A stretch of DNA of 29,042 bases from a virus. Its lineage: Duplodnaviria; Heunggongvirae; Uroviricota; Caudoviricetes. The stretch is from IMG/VR virus record IMGVR_UViG_3300029911_000006; one strand, written 5' to 3'. Positions 21,366-25,002 of this stretch are shown here, one piece after another. Under the pieces are notes generated by a model. That model was not told the origin of the DNA. It made no database searches and was given only the letters and a program-made list of their open reading frames with translations. How positions within the stretch are numbered: position 1 is the first letter of the stretch; each line of letters opens with the position of its first letter. A program made the translations under genes and the position numbers.

Positions 21366-22244
21366 TTAGAGTTCCCTGAACTCCCGCTTCAATTGGGCCA
21401 CGAACGCCATGAAATTCGGGGTCAAAGTGATGTCCGGATGCCACGCAAGGTCAAGGTCAATCAGGTTATAGCTCTTGACAATGTGGGTGCCGGGGATGTT
21501 AGTCCCGTCCGGGTTCTTGTCATGGCCGAGCATCCATACCGTATCCGCAACTGCACACCCCGCCGTCACATCGTGAGTGACGATGATGATGGTGTTAAGT
21601 TCATCAAGATTTGCTATCTTCTGAATGAGTTGAGCCGCCTTCTCCAGTGCGATGGGATCGAGACCAGAGAATGGCTCGTCCATCAAAATGAAGTGGTTAT
21701 TGCACAGAACCTGCTGGATGATGGCGATGCGTTGACGCTGACCACCGGATAAGCTGGCCGGGTAGTCATTGACCTTATCAGCCAACTCGAACTCTGTGAG
21801 GTAGGCCATGATTTCATCATGAGCCTGTGCGGTCGTCTTGCCGTTACGCTTCGCCGCCAGCATCAGGTTGCCCATGACAGTGCGGTGAGGGAACAGCGGG
21901 TAGCTCTGAGCCACAACACCAACGTCTCCCGCATGAACCGCACAACGTTCCTTGGTGCATCCTTCCCGACCGCAGTTGCAGTTGTTGATGTAGACGATAC
22001 CGCTGTTGGGTTTGTTGAGTCCAGCAATGGTGCGGAACAGTTGAGTCTTACCATAACCTGAAGGCCCGAGGAGAGCGACTACTTGGCCTTTGACGAAGGG
22101 CTTACCCGTGGACGGGTCGATGTGTGTGCATTTGATGTCTTTAATGTTTGCATTGACGTTGACCAGCACTGGGTGGTCGTAAGACACGTTGATATTCTCG
22201 ATGGTCAGTAGTGCCTGACCGAGTGTGTAGTCCATGCTTGACAT
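21366..22244 (-). CDS. ABC transporter ATP-binding protein (NitT/TauT-like), with a Cys-rich insert after the Walker A motif
   Basis: GPSGYGKT Walker A, LSGGQRQR signature, ILMDEP Walker B, THD H-loop; insert NNCNCGREGCTKERC. Confidence 0.85.
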   Translation of the reverse strand: MSSMDYTLGQALLTIENINVSYDHPVLVNVNANIKDIKCTHIDPSTGKPFVKGQVVALLGPSGYGKTQLFRTIAGLNKPNSGIVYINNCNCGREGCTKERCAVHAGDVGVVAQSYPLFPHRTVMGNLMLAAKRNGKTTAQAHDEIMAYLTEFELADKVNDYPASLSGGQRQRIAIIQQVLCNNHFILMDEPFSGLDPIALEKAAQLIQKIANLDELNTIIIVTHDVTAGCAVADTVWMLGHDKNPDGTNIPGTHIVKSYNLIDLDLAWHPDITLTPNFMAFVAQLKREFREL

Positions 22245-22247
22245 ATA

Positions 22248-23099
22248 TTAGTTCTCCACCGTCAGGTTAGCGTAACCAAAGAACATGTTCTTCAGGAAGC
22301 CGAAGATGTAGTCCTGACCGATACCGATGATGAGGATGCAAATCTGAATCGCCATGATATCACCATACTTCGCGTGATGCTGCATGGTCTGTAGCATGGT
22401 GCCGACGCCACCCTCAGCGAACACGATACCTTCAACCAAGGTAAGCATCATCCAACCCATGGCAGCGGTCTGGCGGAGTACGTCGAAAGCCTGAGCCGCA
22501 GTGCCAAGGATGACTACTTCCCACACGATACGCCACTGACTGAAGCGGAGAGTACGGGCAAGGTCAAACTGTTCCTTGGGGATGTTCTTGATGACATCCA
22601 GCATGGACGTGATGAACCATACCGAGATAGAGAAGGCTAACATCGCAACCTTGACCGTGTGCTTAGAGTCGAAGGTCAACTCGAACGCGAGTGAAATACC
22701 CACCATGGACAGCATACGAAGAGCGGTGGTCATCTGAGCAGTTGGTTTGAATATGGGGATAACTGACAGGTACGAGATTGACAGCGAGGCGATAAGAGCC
22801 ACACCGATGGCCTGAAGGTTGAGCACATAGCTGACGATGAGTTGGTTGCCAAGTCCACTGTTCATCCACAGGTCGGTGAAGCAATGCCATACCTCAGCCG
22901 GGGTGGGGAGTAGAGCCCACGGGCTGAATAGCCATGCTCCGAGCAGGACAACTATGGTCGAAGCGAAGATGCCTGTGGCGACTGTCTTGTTCACAGTTCG
23001 CAGAGGGGAGACAGAGTTGATAGACACACGCAGGAAAAACTTCAGTTTGTCTTTCAGGGGGACACTGGTTACAGCGGGAACTACAGCTTGAGTTGCCAT
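22248..23099 (-). CDS. ABC transporter permease (SsuC/TauC-like binding-protein-dependent family)
   Basis: 283 aa, multiple TM segments, EAA-like loop DLARTLRFSQWRIVWEVVILG; GAGGA RBS. Confidence 0.8.
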   Translation of the reverse strand: MATQAVVPAVTSVPLKDKLKFFLRVSINSVSPLRTVNKTVATGIFASTIVVLLGAWLFSPWALLPTPAEVWHCFTDLWMNSGLGNQLIVSYVLNLQAIGVALIASLSISYLSVIPIFKPTAQMTTALRMLSMVGISLAFELTFDSKHTVKVAMLAFSISVWFITSMLDVIKNIPKEQFDLARTLRFSQWRIVWEVVILGTAAQAFDVLRQTAAMGWMMLTLVEGIVFAEGGVGTMLQTMQHHAKYGDIMAIQICILIIGIGQDYIFGFLKNMFFGYANLTVEN

Positions 23100-23113
23100 T
23101 CAATCCTCACAAG

Positions 23114-23137
23114 GAAGGGGCGGCGAACCGCCCCTTC
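23114..23137 (-). promoter_or_regulatory. intercistronic stable hairpin GAAGGGGCGG-UUCG-CCGCCCCUUC between the binding-protein and permease genes
   Basis: 10-bp GC stem with a UUCG tetraloop and no U-tract; resembles mRNA-stabilising structures in ABC operons. Confidence 0.45.
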
Positions 23138-23160
23138 TCTGGTTAGCCTACAGGTTAGTT

Positions 23161-25002
23161 TTACCCAATCTGCAAAATTTCCACACGGCGGTTCTTCTGC
23201 TTGTCATCCGTCGTGTCGTTCGGAGCCACCGGGTTCGCAGAGCCGAGGCCCTTGACAGCCTTGAACCGAGCAGCAGGGAAGTCCTGCGGAGCGTACGACA
23301 TGAGGTAAGCCTTCACCGCAGCAGCACGCTGTGCGGACAGGTCGATGTTGTGCTGATGCCCAGTTGGAGTCTGGTCACCCGCGTTGTCAGTGTAGCCGTC
23401 AATCTCGAACGCAAGAGACTTGGCGATACCGAGCGTAGTTGCCAACTGGTCAAGCTGAGCCTTGCCAGCCGGAGTCAGAGCAGCCGAGTTGGTAGCGAAC
23501 ACAATATACTGCTTATCCGTGCTCACGACCGCACCCGTGGAGATAGCCGCAGTGTAGTCTGTGGTCTCAGCACCCCCTCCCGTCACACCGTTATTGGTGA
23601 GGGCGTCCTCAGCCAAGCGGATGTACTTGGTGTTGACCGCCTGAGCGTAGGTCGGGATGGGGCTATCCTTGAACAGGGAGGCGTACTGCTCCATGTCGAT
23701 ACGAGCGAACGTCTCGTAGGTCGCCTTCATGTTGTTCTGGTATCCGGGTACGAGACCAAAATACTGAAGGTTGTCCTGAAGGTTAAAGACAGCCGAGCCG
23801 CCAATCAGGTTGCCCGTCTTATCCTTCTCACCCACGAAGTAGTTGTACCAGTAGTCGCCCGTGTTGTCTGCGTAGACAGTTGCGGCAACGTTCGAAGCAA
23901 ACTTGATGGCAGCAGGGTACGCCTTCATCTGGTCAGCAGCCGTGAACGACGCAGCGAAGAAACCAGACATGGTGTCGGGGTTCTTATCGGCGAACTTGCT
24001 GATGACGGCCAAGGTAGCTGGCATCTGAGCCGAGTATTCACGCGACGAGATAATCTTCGTTGTCCCGTCAATGGGACCGTGGATGGCATCATCGTCTCCC
24101 GGCGTCCAAGTTACGACACCATCCGGGCAAACGGTTGCAATCTTGCCATCCTTCTTGCCAGAGTCATCGACCTCAGGTCGCTGTTCGCACTTGTGCGGGT
24201 TGTAGACATCGGTGACGGCCTTGATGTAATCGTCGTCCGGTGCCGCCATCCAGTTCACAGCGGTCGGGTTGTAGGTGTGCGGGTCAGGGTTGTTCTTCAA
24301 GTTGTTGAAGCCCTCGAACGCCATGGCGATGTTCCAGTCACCGTCACGAATGACGCCGACGATAGTCTTACCAATCATGGTTTGAGGATTCTTCTTCCAC
24401 TCAGCAGGTCCAAGTAAAGCATCCTCACCGTTGGAGCGACCAAGCGCACCATACAGCTTGACCGTGTAGGCACCAACGCCCTTGTCCAGCTTGAGCAACT
24501 GAGCGTTCAGTTCCGACAGCCACTGTCCGCCTGAGTCACCCATGAAGATGAGAGCAGCCGCTCCAGTGTCACACGTGTTCTGGTTCTTGGATGCCATCTG
24601 ATTGGCACACGCAAGGATGTCAGCACGCATGGTGTCGTTGGAGTCAGTACGCTTGAACTTGTAGTTCACGTTGTACTTCTCGAACAGGGAACCCTGCATT
24701 GTTTCAGCACCACCGGAAGCGAGAAAAATGCTGTGTTGTGCGTTCCACTCCCATCCGTCCACGAGGAACAGAGGGGAAGAGAGACTTGCCGGGTTGGAGG
24801 AAGGGAAGGGGAGCGGGGCAATGCCCTGCACCACAGCGTCTTCCTGTTTGAGAACCTGCACCTTCGTGGCGACGACCGACTTCAGGATGCCGGGGGTCGG
24901 AATCAACCCCGTGGACATCGCGAAGCGAAGACCGAACACAACGACTGCGGCTACGATAACGACCAAGAACAACTTGGCTTGAGGCTTGATTCGGATTGCC
25001 AT
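23161..25002 (-). CDS. membrane-anchored periplasmic protein, 613 aa, with a C-terminal OmpA-like peptidoglycan-binding domain. Operon context suggests it is the substrate-binding component
   Basis: N-terminal TM helix; C-terminal FEIDGYTDNAGD...NIDLSAQRAAAVKAYL...NRRVEI OmpA-family motif; first gene of a three-gene ABC operon. Confidence 0.6.
   Translation of the reverse strand: MAIRIKPQAKLFLVVIVAAVVVFGLRFAMSTGLIPTPGILKSVVATKVQVLKQEDAVVQGIAPLPFPSSNPASLSSPLFLVDGWEWNAQHSIFLASGGAETMQGSLFEKYNVNYKFKRTDSNDTMRADILACANQMASKNQNTCDTGAAALIFMGDSGGQWLSELNAQLLKLDKGVGAYTVKLYGALGRSNGEDALLGPAEWKKNPQTMIGKTIVGVIRDGDWNIAMAFEGFNNLKNNPDPHTYNPTAVNWMAAPDDDYIKAVTDVYNPHKCEQRPEVDDSGKKDGKIATVCPDGVVTWTPGDDDAIHGPIDGTTKIISSREYSAQMPATLAVISKFADKNPDTMSGFFAASFTAADQMKAYPAAIKFASNVAATVYADNTGDYWYNYFVGEKDKTGNLIGGSAVFNLQDNLQYFGLVPGYQNNMKATYETFARIDMEQYASLFKDSPIPTYAQAVNTKYIRLAEDALTNNGVTGGGAETTDYTAAISTGAVVSTDKQYIVFATNSAALTPAGKAQLDQLATTLGIAKSLAFEIDGYTDNAGDQTPTGHQHNIDLSAQRAAAVKAYLMSYAPQDFPAARFKAVKGLGSANPVAPNDTTDDKQKNRRVEILQIG

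Follow-up and report, generated by a model that had tools for sequence, protein, structure and literature searches.

The viral contig IMGVR_UViG_3300029911_000006 (Caudoviricetes), analysed here over a stretch of 29,042 nucleotides (the window, to which coordinates refer unless a locus is named), carries a module of genes A-B-C-D-E, all on the minus strand, in which a putative ATP-binding cassette (ABC) importer is accompanied by two predicted helical proteins. The best reading of the sequence comparisons is that the functional unit comprises all five genes, C-D-E being its 3' three-fifths. We propose that the module encodes a NitT/TauT-class importer tethered to the wall, that this importer is coupled in function with a PspA-like scaffold anchored in the membrane, and that the phage uses the set to maintain a competent host envelope while it infects; we give this proposal roughly an even chance of being right. 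The genes are as follows.

26900-26178, minus strand: gene A, 240 amino acids, the first gene of the module
26146-25046, minus strand: gene B, 366 amino acids from the ATG at 26146, with an open reading frame (ORF) that reaches back to a GTG at 26233
25002-23161, minus strand: gene C, 613 amino acids
23099-22248, minus strand: gene D, 283 amino acids
22244-21366, minus strand: gene E, 292 amino acids

The interval 21366-25002 contains exactly three ORFs, C, D and E, which run in the same direction on the minus strand, with a gap of 61 nt between C and D and of 3 nt between D and E. An earlier description made from the letters alone (the sequence-only reading) had picked out these three co-directional genes; their number, limits and 3-nt gap stand, while the first gap, given as 60 nt, is one nucleotide longer. 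Its view of the three as a complete unit does not hold, since A and B, lying directly upstream, are co-conserved with C-D-E. This became apparent from 125 loci (L numbers below) fetched around C homologues, namely 80 of the 202 in species-representative genomes, 34 from IMG/VR and the remainder by exact-protein look-up, among whose ORFs the A and B families were sought by iterative hidden Markov model searches. The A family is present at 103 of the 125 loci and the B family at 112, most of the loci without them being truncated. From A to E, the window proteins are 39%, 54%, 53%, 49% and 56% identical to those of a Terracidiphilus locus (L002), and identity to two huge-phage contigs (L005 and L006) is 53-73% across the module genes. 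All five genes are also found in LR756500.1, a 462-kb uncultured phage. The order is A-B-C-D-E in most loci and C-D-E-B-A in Armatimonadota (L084, L089 and L074, for example in a 3.3-Mb Fimbriimonadaceae chromosome) and in one IMG/VR locus (L110). Flanks are unrelated between loci and no further gene family recurs broadly, and in one clade metagenome-assembled genomes (MAGs) assigned to differing phyla have a nucleotide identity of 80-93% over ~6.1 kb, which stops at the cassette borders. The identity ending at these borders and the unrelated flanks indicate that the module behaves as a discrete transferable cassette.

In seven of these MAG loci (L057, L060 and L061, also L051, L054, L067 and L069, at ~3450-9650) the identity is 91-93% and the shared stretch, of only ~6.1-6.3 kb between unrelated flanks, consists of the cassette and one divergent gene; the MAGs are labelled Acidobacteria gp2, Limnocylindria and Candidatus Cybelea, pointing either to recent horizontal transfer or to mis-binned contigs. 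The 'gp2' clade also has a 154-residue gene divergent from A (3440-3904 in both L051 and L060, and in 8 further loci), which has no PDB match and in which a helix-turn-helix-like stretch, TNYRSLMYWLRGDRPIP, can be seen by eye; it is possibly a clade-specific regulator.

The architecture of C gives the module its most distinctive component, made up of three parts.

24916-24972, minus strand: C residues 11-29, N-terminal hydrophobic segment (Kyte-Doolittle mean 2.73 over 19 residues; modelled as a helix over residues 7-31)
23593-24771, minus strand: C residues 78-470, predicted two-lobe alpha/beta periplasmic binding-protein fold of the TauA/ThiY/CmpA/NrtA class
23167-23529, minus strand: C residues 492-612, OmpA-like peptidoglycan-binding domain

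The AlphaFold2 model of C, built from 27 homologues, has a mean pLDDT (predicted local distance difference test) of 82.6, with values mostly of 82-96 in the binding-protein domain, a low-confidence linker of ~45 residues after the N-terminal helix and a short disordered linker between the binding-protein and OmpA-like domains. A Foldseek search of the PDB with this model returned TauA (6ssy) first, with an E-value of 1.7e-10 and a TM-score of 0.72 on the target, followed by ThiY, CmpA, NrtA and the regulatory domains of NrtC/CmpC. No binding-protein model of Pfam matched the middle region, even when the members of the C family were scanned one by one, and the assignment of this region to the class II binding-protein fold is therefore a fold-level one, made from a predicted structure. 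The doubt attached to the sequence-only reading, that the middle of the 613-residue protein might show no such fold, is thereby answered by a TauA-like one. Residues invariant in the family cluster just past the ends of beta-strands, a position at which binding proteins of this kind have their cleft lining; among them are W84/W86, G155-D156, D194, D220-G-D-W223, N238-P239, W299-x-P-G-D303 and Q326-M327.

The OmpA-like domain is recognised directly by Pfam (PF00691 over residues 502-605, E-value 3.3e-16, 59.9 bits against a cut-off of 27.2 bits) and by a PDB profile match with an E-value of 1.6e-22. Its invariant motifs are G-Y-T-D (536-539), N..LS..RA..V (552-563) and NRRV (604-607), and D539 and R559 do not vary among the 27 sequences, nor does NRRV. 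In the structures of OmpA, Pal and MotB the Asp/Arg pair to which D539 and R559 correspond contacts the diaminopimelate of peptidoglycan. At the other end of C we favour a signal anchor, a cleavable signal peptide being the less probable interpretation of the hydrophobic segment; hydrophobicity and the Pfam match thus bear out the N-terminal anchor and C-terminal OmpA-like domain that had been recognised by eye. In possessing these two elements, with the Asp/Arg pair, C resembles MotB, Pal and YiaD, but it has a binding-protein domain of ~400 residues inserted, and its partners are ABC components instead of MotA or TolQR. The fusion of a binding protein with an OmpA-like domain had been considered unusual. 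It belongs in fact to a large family (862 matches, with 202 loci in species-representative genomes and 34 in IMG/VR) and is not peculiar to the phage of the window.

Gene D is best read, from sequence similarity, as the putative permease of a type I ABC importer of the NitT/TauT class. It scores 24.1 bits with PF00528 (BPD_transp_1), for which the cut-off is 26.4 bits, and its relatives score 26.2-27.8 bits. Its sole relatives of solved structure are CmpB (E-value 2e-4) and NrtB (1.3e-3), aligned over residues 78-273 and so over almost all of the protein, and there are weak model matches to NtrB and SaoP. The features of D and of the space in front of it are these.

22503-22568, minus strand: D residues 178-199, EAA-like loop FDLARTLRF..., kept across the D family, with Arg in place of the canonical Gly
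23114-23137, minus strand: RNA hairpin between C and D, GAAGGGGCGG-UUCG-CCGCCCCUUC, with a 10-bp GC-rich stem and no U-tract

Hairpins are present at the same site after C in L002, L005, L006, L019 and L099, with a different sequence each time. In classical importer operons a hairpin following the binding-protein gene keeps its message above that of the permease and the ATPase, and by analogy the C-D hairpin probably makes C more abundant than D and E. Some relatives have additional sequence within the module: L005 has three extra ORFs (83, 154 and 197 residues, at 11893-13203) between the binding-protein and permease genes, and several IMG/VR loci have insertions of 0.5-1 kb between C, D and E.

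Judging from its motifs, E is an ABC ATPase of the importer type with the complete catalytic apparatus intact. It matches PF00005 (ABC_tran) with an E-value of 2.2e-25 and contains Walker A (GPSGYGKT, residues 60-67), the Q-loop (111-114), the LSGGQ signature (165-169), Walker B with the catalytic glutamate (185-190) and the H-switch (222-225). Two further features of the E family concern the region of Walker A and the loop that follows.

21942-21980, minus strand: E residues 89-101, CxCx4Cx4C motif on a 10-residue insertion
L006 12671-14539: LAGLIDADG/Hint intein in Walker A of E from a related huge phage, GIGK/C...HN/T

The intein sits in the P-loop of L006 E, which argues that the site is conserved and that the gene is kept by the phage. 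The cysteines (C89-x-C91-x4-C96-x4-C101) are placed in a loop of the beta-subdomain ahead of the Q-loop. A cysteine insert had been noticed before and is indeed present, but its spacing is CxCx4Cx4C, not ending in Cx5C, and it starts 22 residues past the end of Walker A instead of immediately after it. It is probably a metal-binding knuckle on the ATPase beta-subdomain, as predicted from the pattern. The complete motif occurs in the window, L005 and L006 and in none of the other 80+ E sequences; it is a decoration specific to the phage clade of the window and not a feature of the system as such. Directly 3' of E, the Terriglobia clade, sister to the window clade, has a 55-residue gene F for a four-cysteine zinc ribbon (CKCKxC...CKTC, then HHxxH), found in this clade only, for example at the following positions and in other Terriglobia loci.

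L002 11480-11647: gene F
L011 14681-14848: gene F

Lineages other than the window clade and its bacterial sister have neither the Cys4 insert nor gene F. The idea that the insert substitutes for gene F was set aside, the distribution being suggestive yet limited to two clades.

The sequence-only reading of C-D-E as an importer-type operon is upheld by these results (ABC_tran and all ATPase motifs in E, a CmpB/NrtB-like permease with an EAA-like loop, a TauA-like binding protein). All importer hallmarks being present, with the hairpin after the binding-protein gene, the module could be a plain auxiliary nutrient importer, taking up nitrogen, sulfur, carbon or a nucleotide precursor and feeding the replication of a ~430-kb genome, with A and B as unrelated neighbours. 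In the window clade the module does stand among genes of nucleotide metabolism (Thy1, dCMP deaminase, NUDIX, nucleoside deoxyribosyltransferase and a dGTP diphosphohydrolase-like domain), and PHROG 293, 'ABC transporter', counts among the auxiliary metabolic genes. However, A and B stay with C-D-E in ~100 loci, across several phyla and in two gene orders, while other neighbours change, and the OmpA tether on the binding protein would be left unexplained, so that we consider plain nutrient import unlikely.

What are A and B then? The database protein of B begins at the ATG at 26146, which has a plausible ribosome-binding site. Its transmembrane segments (residues 37-55 and 63-81) have positive charges on both flanks, and the remainder of B should therefore be cytoplasmic. 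The model of B combines this transmembrane hairpin with a long helical hairpin (residues 112-171 and 175-254, pLDDT 78-92), and the protein has an invariant acidic-aromatic C-terminal tail. Grouped at 50% identity, the large B family falls into 895 clusters. When 125 diverse members were scanned against Pfam, PspA_IM30 (PF04012) was matched by 35 of them, with a best E-value of 4e-7, and the runner-up family by 11; in a smaller set PspA_IM30 was matched by 6 of 34. B of Terracidiphilus matches PF04012 with an E-value of 7.9e-4 and 19.5 bits, below the cut-off of 33.9 bits, and several members are named 'phage shock protein A' in the JGI annotation. B thus resembles PspA, Vipp1 (IM30) and LiaH in its long helical hairpin after a 'DP...L....M' helix start, in its recurrent weak PF04012 matches and in its predicted location at the membrane. 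It differs in being integral, with a transmembrane hairpin, where PspA and Vipp1 are peripheral, and in a similarity that stays under curated thresholds, and the PspBC, PspF and LiaI partners of the Psp and Lia systems are absent from the module. We consider B, with moderate confidence, a PspA/IM30 (ESCRT-III)-like candidate and not a demonstrated member.

A lacks transmembrane segments. Its N-terminal motif is conserved and is joined through a Pro/Ala-rich linker to a coiled coil at the C-terminus, and the genes that take its place in L002, L005 and L006 are 39-55% identical to it. Comparison of A with B by hhalign gave no real similarity, and the two are not evident paralogues. For A and B of the window, Pfam, NCBIfam, PHROGs and PADLOC returned nothing, and PDB sequence and profile searches with B gave coiled-coil noise only. 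A weak match of A to TerB (E-value 0.025) disappeared when the family profile was used and was dropped.

Among characterised systems the transporter part is closest to the NitT/TauT importers (NrtABCD, CmpABCD, TauABC, SsuABC and ThiXYZ), to which it is linked by the fold of the middle of C, the CmpB/NrtB match of D and the importer-type ATPase. Identity of these to the window proteins is ~10-14%, however, with curated model thresholds not reached; the known members have neither an OmpA domain nor PspA-like partners, and the invariant residues of the module suggest another ligand. Membrane tethering in itself is shared with NrtA and CmpA, which are lipoproteins. Host-type uptake components on a phage are likewise familiar from pstS of cyanophages. 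Cyanophages carry the binding protein only and rely on the host permease, whereas the phage of the window encodes a whole transporter and two accessory proteins.

The closest match in architecture is a bacterial operon comprising PspA, SIG+PBPB+OmpA, a permease, an ABC ATPase, SIG+TM+Snf7 and AAA+ (Ravi et al., 2024; mSystems, PMC11237479), exemplified by OGG56892.1 of Candidatus Handelsmanbacteria, where the architecture includes (inactive AAA+)-AAA+. Its authors proposed that the OmpA domain binds the wall and the binding protein the transported solute, so that transport is tied to membrane remodelling; the operon is described there without experimental characterisation and phages are not mentioned. 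The module shares with it, at the level of architecture only, the binding protein-OmpA fusion, the permease, the ABC ATPase, a membrane-anchored ESCRT-III-like gene and a second helical protein. It differs in being phage-borne, in gene order, in having no AAA+ ATPase and in that A, which stands where the operon has its PspA gene and is the second helical protein, shows no detectable PspA similarity. The operon type is known from bacteria, while the phage-borne five-gene form without AAA+ is new. Literature searches yielded no description of a phage-borne version of the module and nothing relevant on OmpA-fused binding proteins; the nearest report concerns gut jumbo phages in which a pspA-like gene adjoins terD genes.

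The control of PspA/ESCRT-III members that have no AAA+ ATPase of their own was named as an open question in the same study (PMC11237479). With the AAA+ gene of the published operon absent from the module in the window and from most fetched loci, it is conceivable that the system is an envelope mechanotransducer or sensor, in which C senses a ligand in the periplasm or wall and the ATP cycle of D2E2 drives a B/A polymer in place of a Vps4-like AAA+. A continuous physical chain would then lead from peptidoglycan, at the OmpA domain, to the cytoplasmic face, with E, B and A; the EAA glycine is degenerate, and the invariant C-terminal tail of B and the conserved N-terminal motif of A would suit docking. 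The importer features are intact, however, and we know of no precedent for a type I importer fold acting as the motor of a cytoplasmic polymer. We regard this mechanism as improbable. A bolder version, to which we would assign an equally small share of belief, holds that the five proteins form one envelope-spanning, ATP-driven machine, in which the wall-fixed ABC complex would power or gate an ESCRT-III-like B/A polymer and so remodel or repair the host inner membrane, the whole being primarily a huge-phage invention repeatedly captured by bacteria. Were this true, delayed lysis, a preserved proton-motive force or the building of membrane structures would be examples of its use.

That the module is carried by a ~430-kb phage is clear from its surroundings. 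A protein identical to B was found on 23 read contigs, the longest of 431,749 bp, and the JGI, Logan and ENA assemblies of different samples, three independent ones, have identical gene order and phage flanks. Syntenic copies of the module, 61-73% identical, are present in the related huge phages L005, whose source contig measures 413 kb, and L006, and the G+C content is even across the module borders. Other features of the window are the following.

19084-20797, minus strand: pair of membrane-protein genes directly downstream of the module, phrog_2087 (372 residues, Cys-rich, transmembrane segments at both ends) and phrog_1383 ('virion structural protein')
26897-28274, minus strand: three genes upstream of A (227, 122 and 113 residues), kept only in the phage clade of the window
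4261-6695, minus strand: seven tRNA genes, Ile-TAT, Leu-TAA, Met-CAT and four Ser (TGA, CGA, GCT and GGA)
7452-9326: NAD-dependent DNA ligase gene
3603-4322, 16723-17688 and 18370-19026: three HNH-type homing-endonuclease-like genes

The downstream pair belongs to two phage-specific families (E-values of 4.4e-100 for phrog_2087 and 7.1e-46 for phrog_1383), and four of the seven tRNA genes were confirmed by Rfam at the gathering score. The ATG of A overlaps the stop codon of an upstream ORF specific to the phage clade (ATGA), and the phage transcription unit may therefore exceed the five-gene module. A consensus scan was unconvincing in the window, with 7 promoter-like sites against a shuffle mean of 3.3 and terminator-like sites at or below the shuffle mean.

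The worry that the genes are a piece of bacterial DNA mis-joined to a phage contig, raised alongside the sequence-only reading, derives some force from the closest named relatives of C, which are bacterial (Terracidiphilus and Bryobacteraceae). The uniform G+C content over the junctions, the tRNA, HNH and ligase genes and phage families, the same flanks in the JGI, Logan and ENA assemblies and on the 431.7-kb contig, the syntenic copies in huge-phage relatives and the overlap of the start of A with the stop of a phage-clade gene together lead us to reject such an assembly chimera, which we hold to be scarcely credible.

Homologues of phrog_2087 occur in 501 phage records, among them those of jumbo phages XacN1 and FLC9, and these 501 are without the module. 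The phrog_2087/phrog_1383 pair is also the neighbour of the module at three distant IMG/VR loci (L094, L119 and L123) but not at bacterial ones, and it is a possible phage-specific accessory of the module. On the 463-kb IMG/VR contig L099 an NAD ligase gene lies 1.4 kb upstream of the module, and in LR756500.1 a TnpB/IS605 OrfB-like gene (OrfB_IS605, with a Cas12f-like TNB domain; L001 3237-4202) lies ~1.6 kb upstream.

The bacterial carriers are mainly Acidobacteriota (Terracidiphilus, Bryobacteraceae, Solibacteraceae, 'gp2' and Thermoanaerobaculia), joined by Armatimonadota, Myxococcota and a few others, some of them probably mis-binned. The viral ones are 34 IMG/VR contigs, many of 100-529 kb, in the sampled flanks of which ligase, clamp loader, primase, sigma factor and phage-only families are found; two of these contigs, L092 and L093, resemble the bacterial Terriglobia type. 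Among 50,697 phage records, tblastn with C, D and B located the module in LR756500.1 alone, an uncultured phage, so that no isolated phage offers itself as a model, and megablast with the region gave no match. A 40-mer taken from the window had no exact counterpart in IMG/VR. In a rough neighbour-joining tree of C the viral contigs cover most of the diversity, with the bacterial groups nested among them and the window clade as sister to a Terriglobia (Acidobacteriota) group. This suggests, as far as such sequence comparisons go, repeated exchange between phages and bacteria, with an acidobacterial host and a direction that is not settled.

A mobile cassette with variable flanks, found in bacteria and phages and with its components in the envelope, might also serve in superinfection exclusion or in defence and counter-defence, either as a complex that blocks DNA entry or wall degradation by competitors or as a bacterial immunity cassette. 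The copy in Terracidiphilus is moreover near genes of a contractile injection system. However, PADLOC reports domain-level similarity only, to ZorB (OmpA/MotB-like part of C) and to generic ABC/AAA ATPases, with nothing for A, B or D and no match to any system, and the strong sequence conservation, the housekeeping-like flanks in 5-Mb chromosomes and the lack of any effector-like domain all speak against such a role, which appears to us very unlikely. In the Terracidiphilus loci L002, L003 and L004 (1-3330) the module is ~3 kb from Phage_sheath_1 and Pvc16_N genes of that injection system and from a sigma-54 activator, an arrangement not seen in other genera.

Returning to the wall-tethered importer coupled to a PspA-like scaffold, we envisage its operation as follows. 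C-D-E would constitute a binding-protein-dependent type I importer of a small periplasmic solute. C would be pinned between the inner membrane, by its anchor and the linker of ~45 residues, and peptidoglycan, by its OmpA-like domain. B would sit in the same membrane via its transmembrane hairpin, with the PspA/ESCRT-III-like helical hairpin facing the cytoplasm, and A would be a soluble coiled-coil partner. In this way the module may couple solute uptake with stabilisation or remodelling of the inner membrane, and a phage expressing it would preserve an intact, energised host envelope over the course of a long and demanding infection. The whole may be viewed as a discrete cassette of ~6 kb that moves between soil bacteria and huge phages. 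A role in envelope remodelling in place of plain nutrient uptake had been suggested from the letters alone, and the PspA-like gene linked to the operon lends that suggestion support. The comparisons show the gene content, folds and motifs of the module, its co-conservation, mobility and distribution and its carriage by phages; the direction of transport, the class of ligand, the coupling of A and B to the transporter and the benefit to the phage are what we infer from this arrangement.

Several observations weigh against the proposal. On the transporter side, D is under the Pfam cut-off and its conserved EAA glycine is an arginine. Among the invariant residues in the pocket region of C, Asp, Trp and Asn predominate and basic ones are few, and the anionic ligands of the structural neighbours can therefore not simply be transferred to C; the sulfonates, nitrate and phosphonate put forward earlier as candidate substrates are ligands of these nearest neighbours, and our analysis points to no ligand. 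On the scaffold side, A has only generic coiled-coil matches in PDB sequence and profile searches and in Pfam across 39 members. B of the window has no Pfam match and the curated threshold of PF04012 is not reached. Comparison of the B family with PspA of E. coli and other enterobacteria by hhalign gave a probability of 2-3%, the PspA template profile being too shallow, since the homologue search gave only sequences at least 86% identical. Structure searches with B place BAR domains at least level with PspA, Vipp1 and ESCRT-III, and B could consequently be any membrane-binding helical hairpin. The two-domain AAA+ gene of the bacterial operon is absent beside the module, both in the window, where the flanking genes encode 113 and 76 residues, and in the inspected loci. 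Finally, some 'viral' or 'MAG' contigs may be mis-assigned, and the neighbour-joining tree behind the exchange between phages and bacteria is crude.

PspA, Vipp1 and the ESCRT-III proteins are the main bacterial machinery of membrane repair and remodelling, and in the module a PspA-like candidate is linked with both the cell wall and an ABC transporter. The simpler view of C-D-E as a 'phage nutrient transporter' is corrected accordingly, and the cell-wall-tethered binding protein emerges as a widespread design among diderm soil bacteria. Since the module is intact in very different huge phages, once with an intein in the P-loop, selection presumably maintains it in viruses and cells alike. At ~5.5 kb, its five genes offer a compact system in which a mechanistic coupling of solute transport with membrane remodelling can be looked for, and they suggest that envelope maintenance may be among the functions that huge phages bring along.

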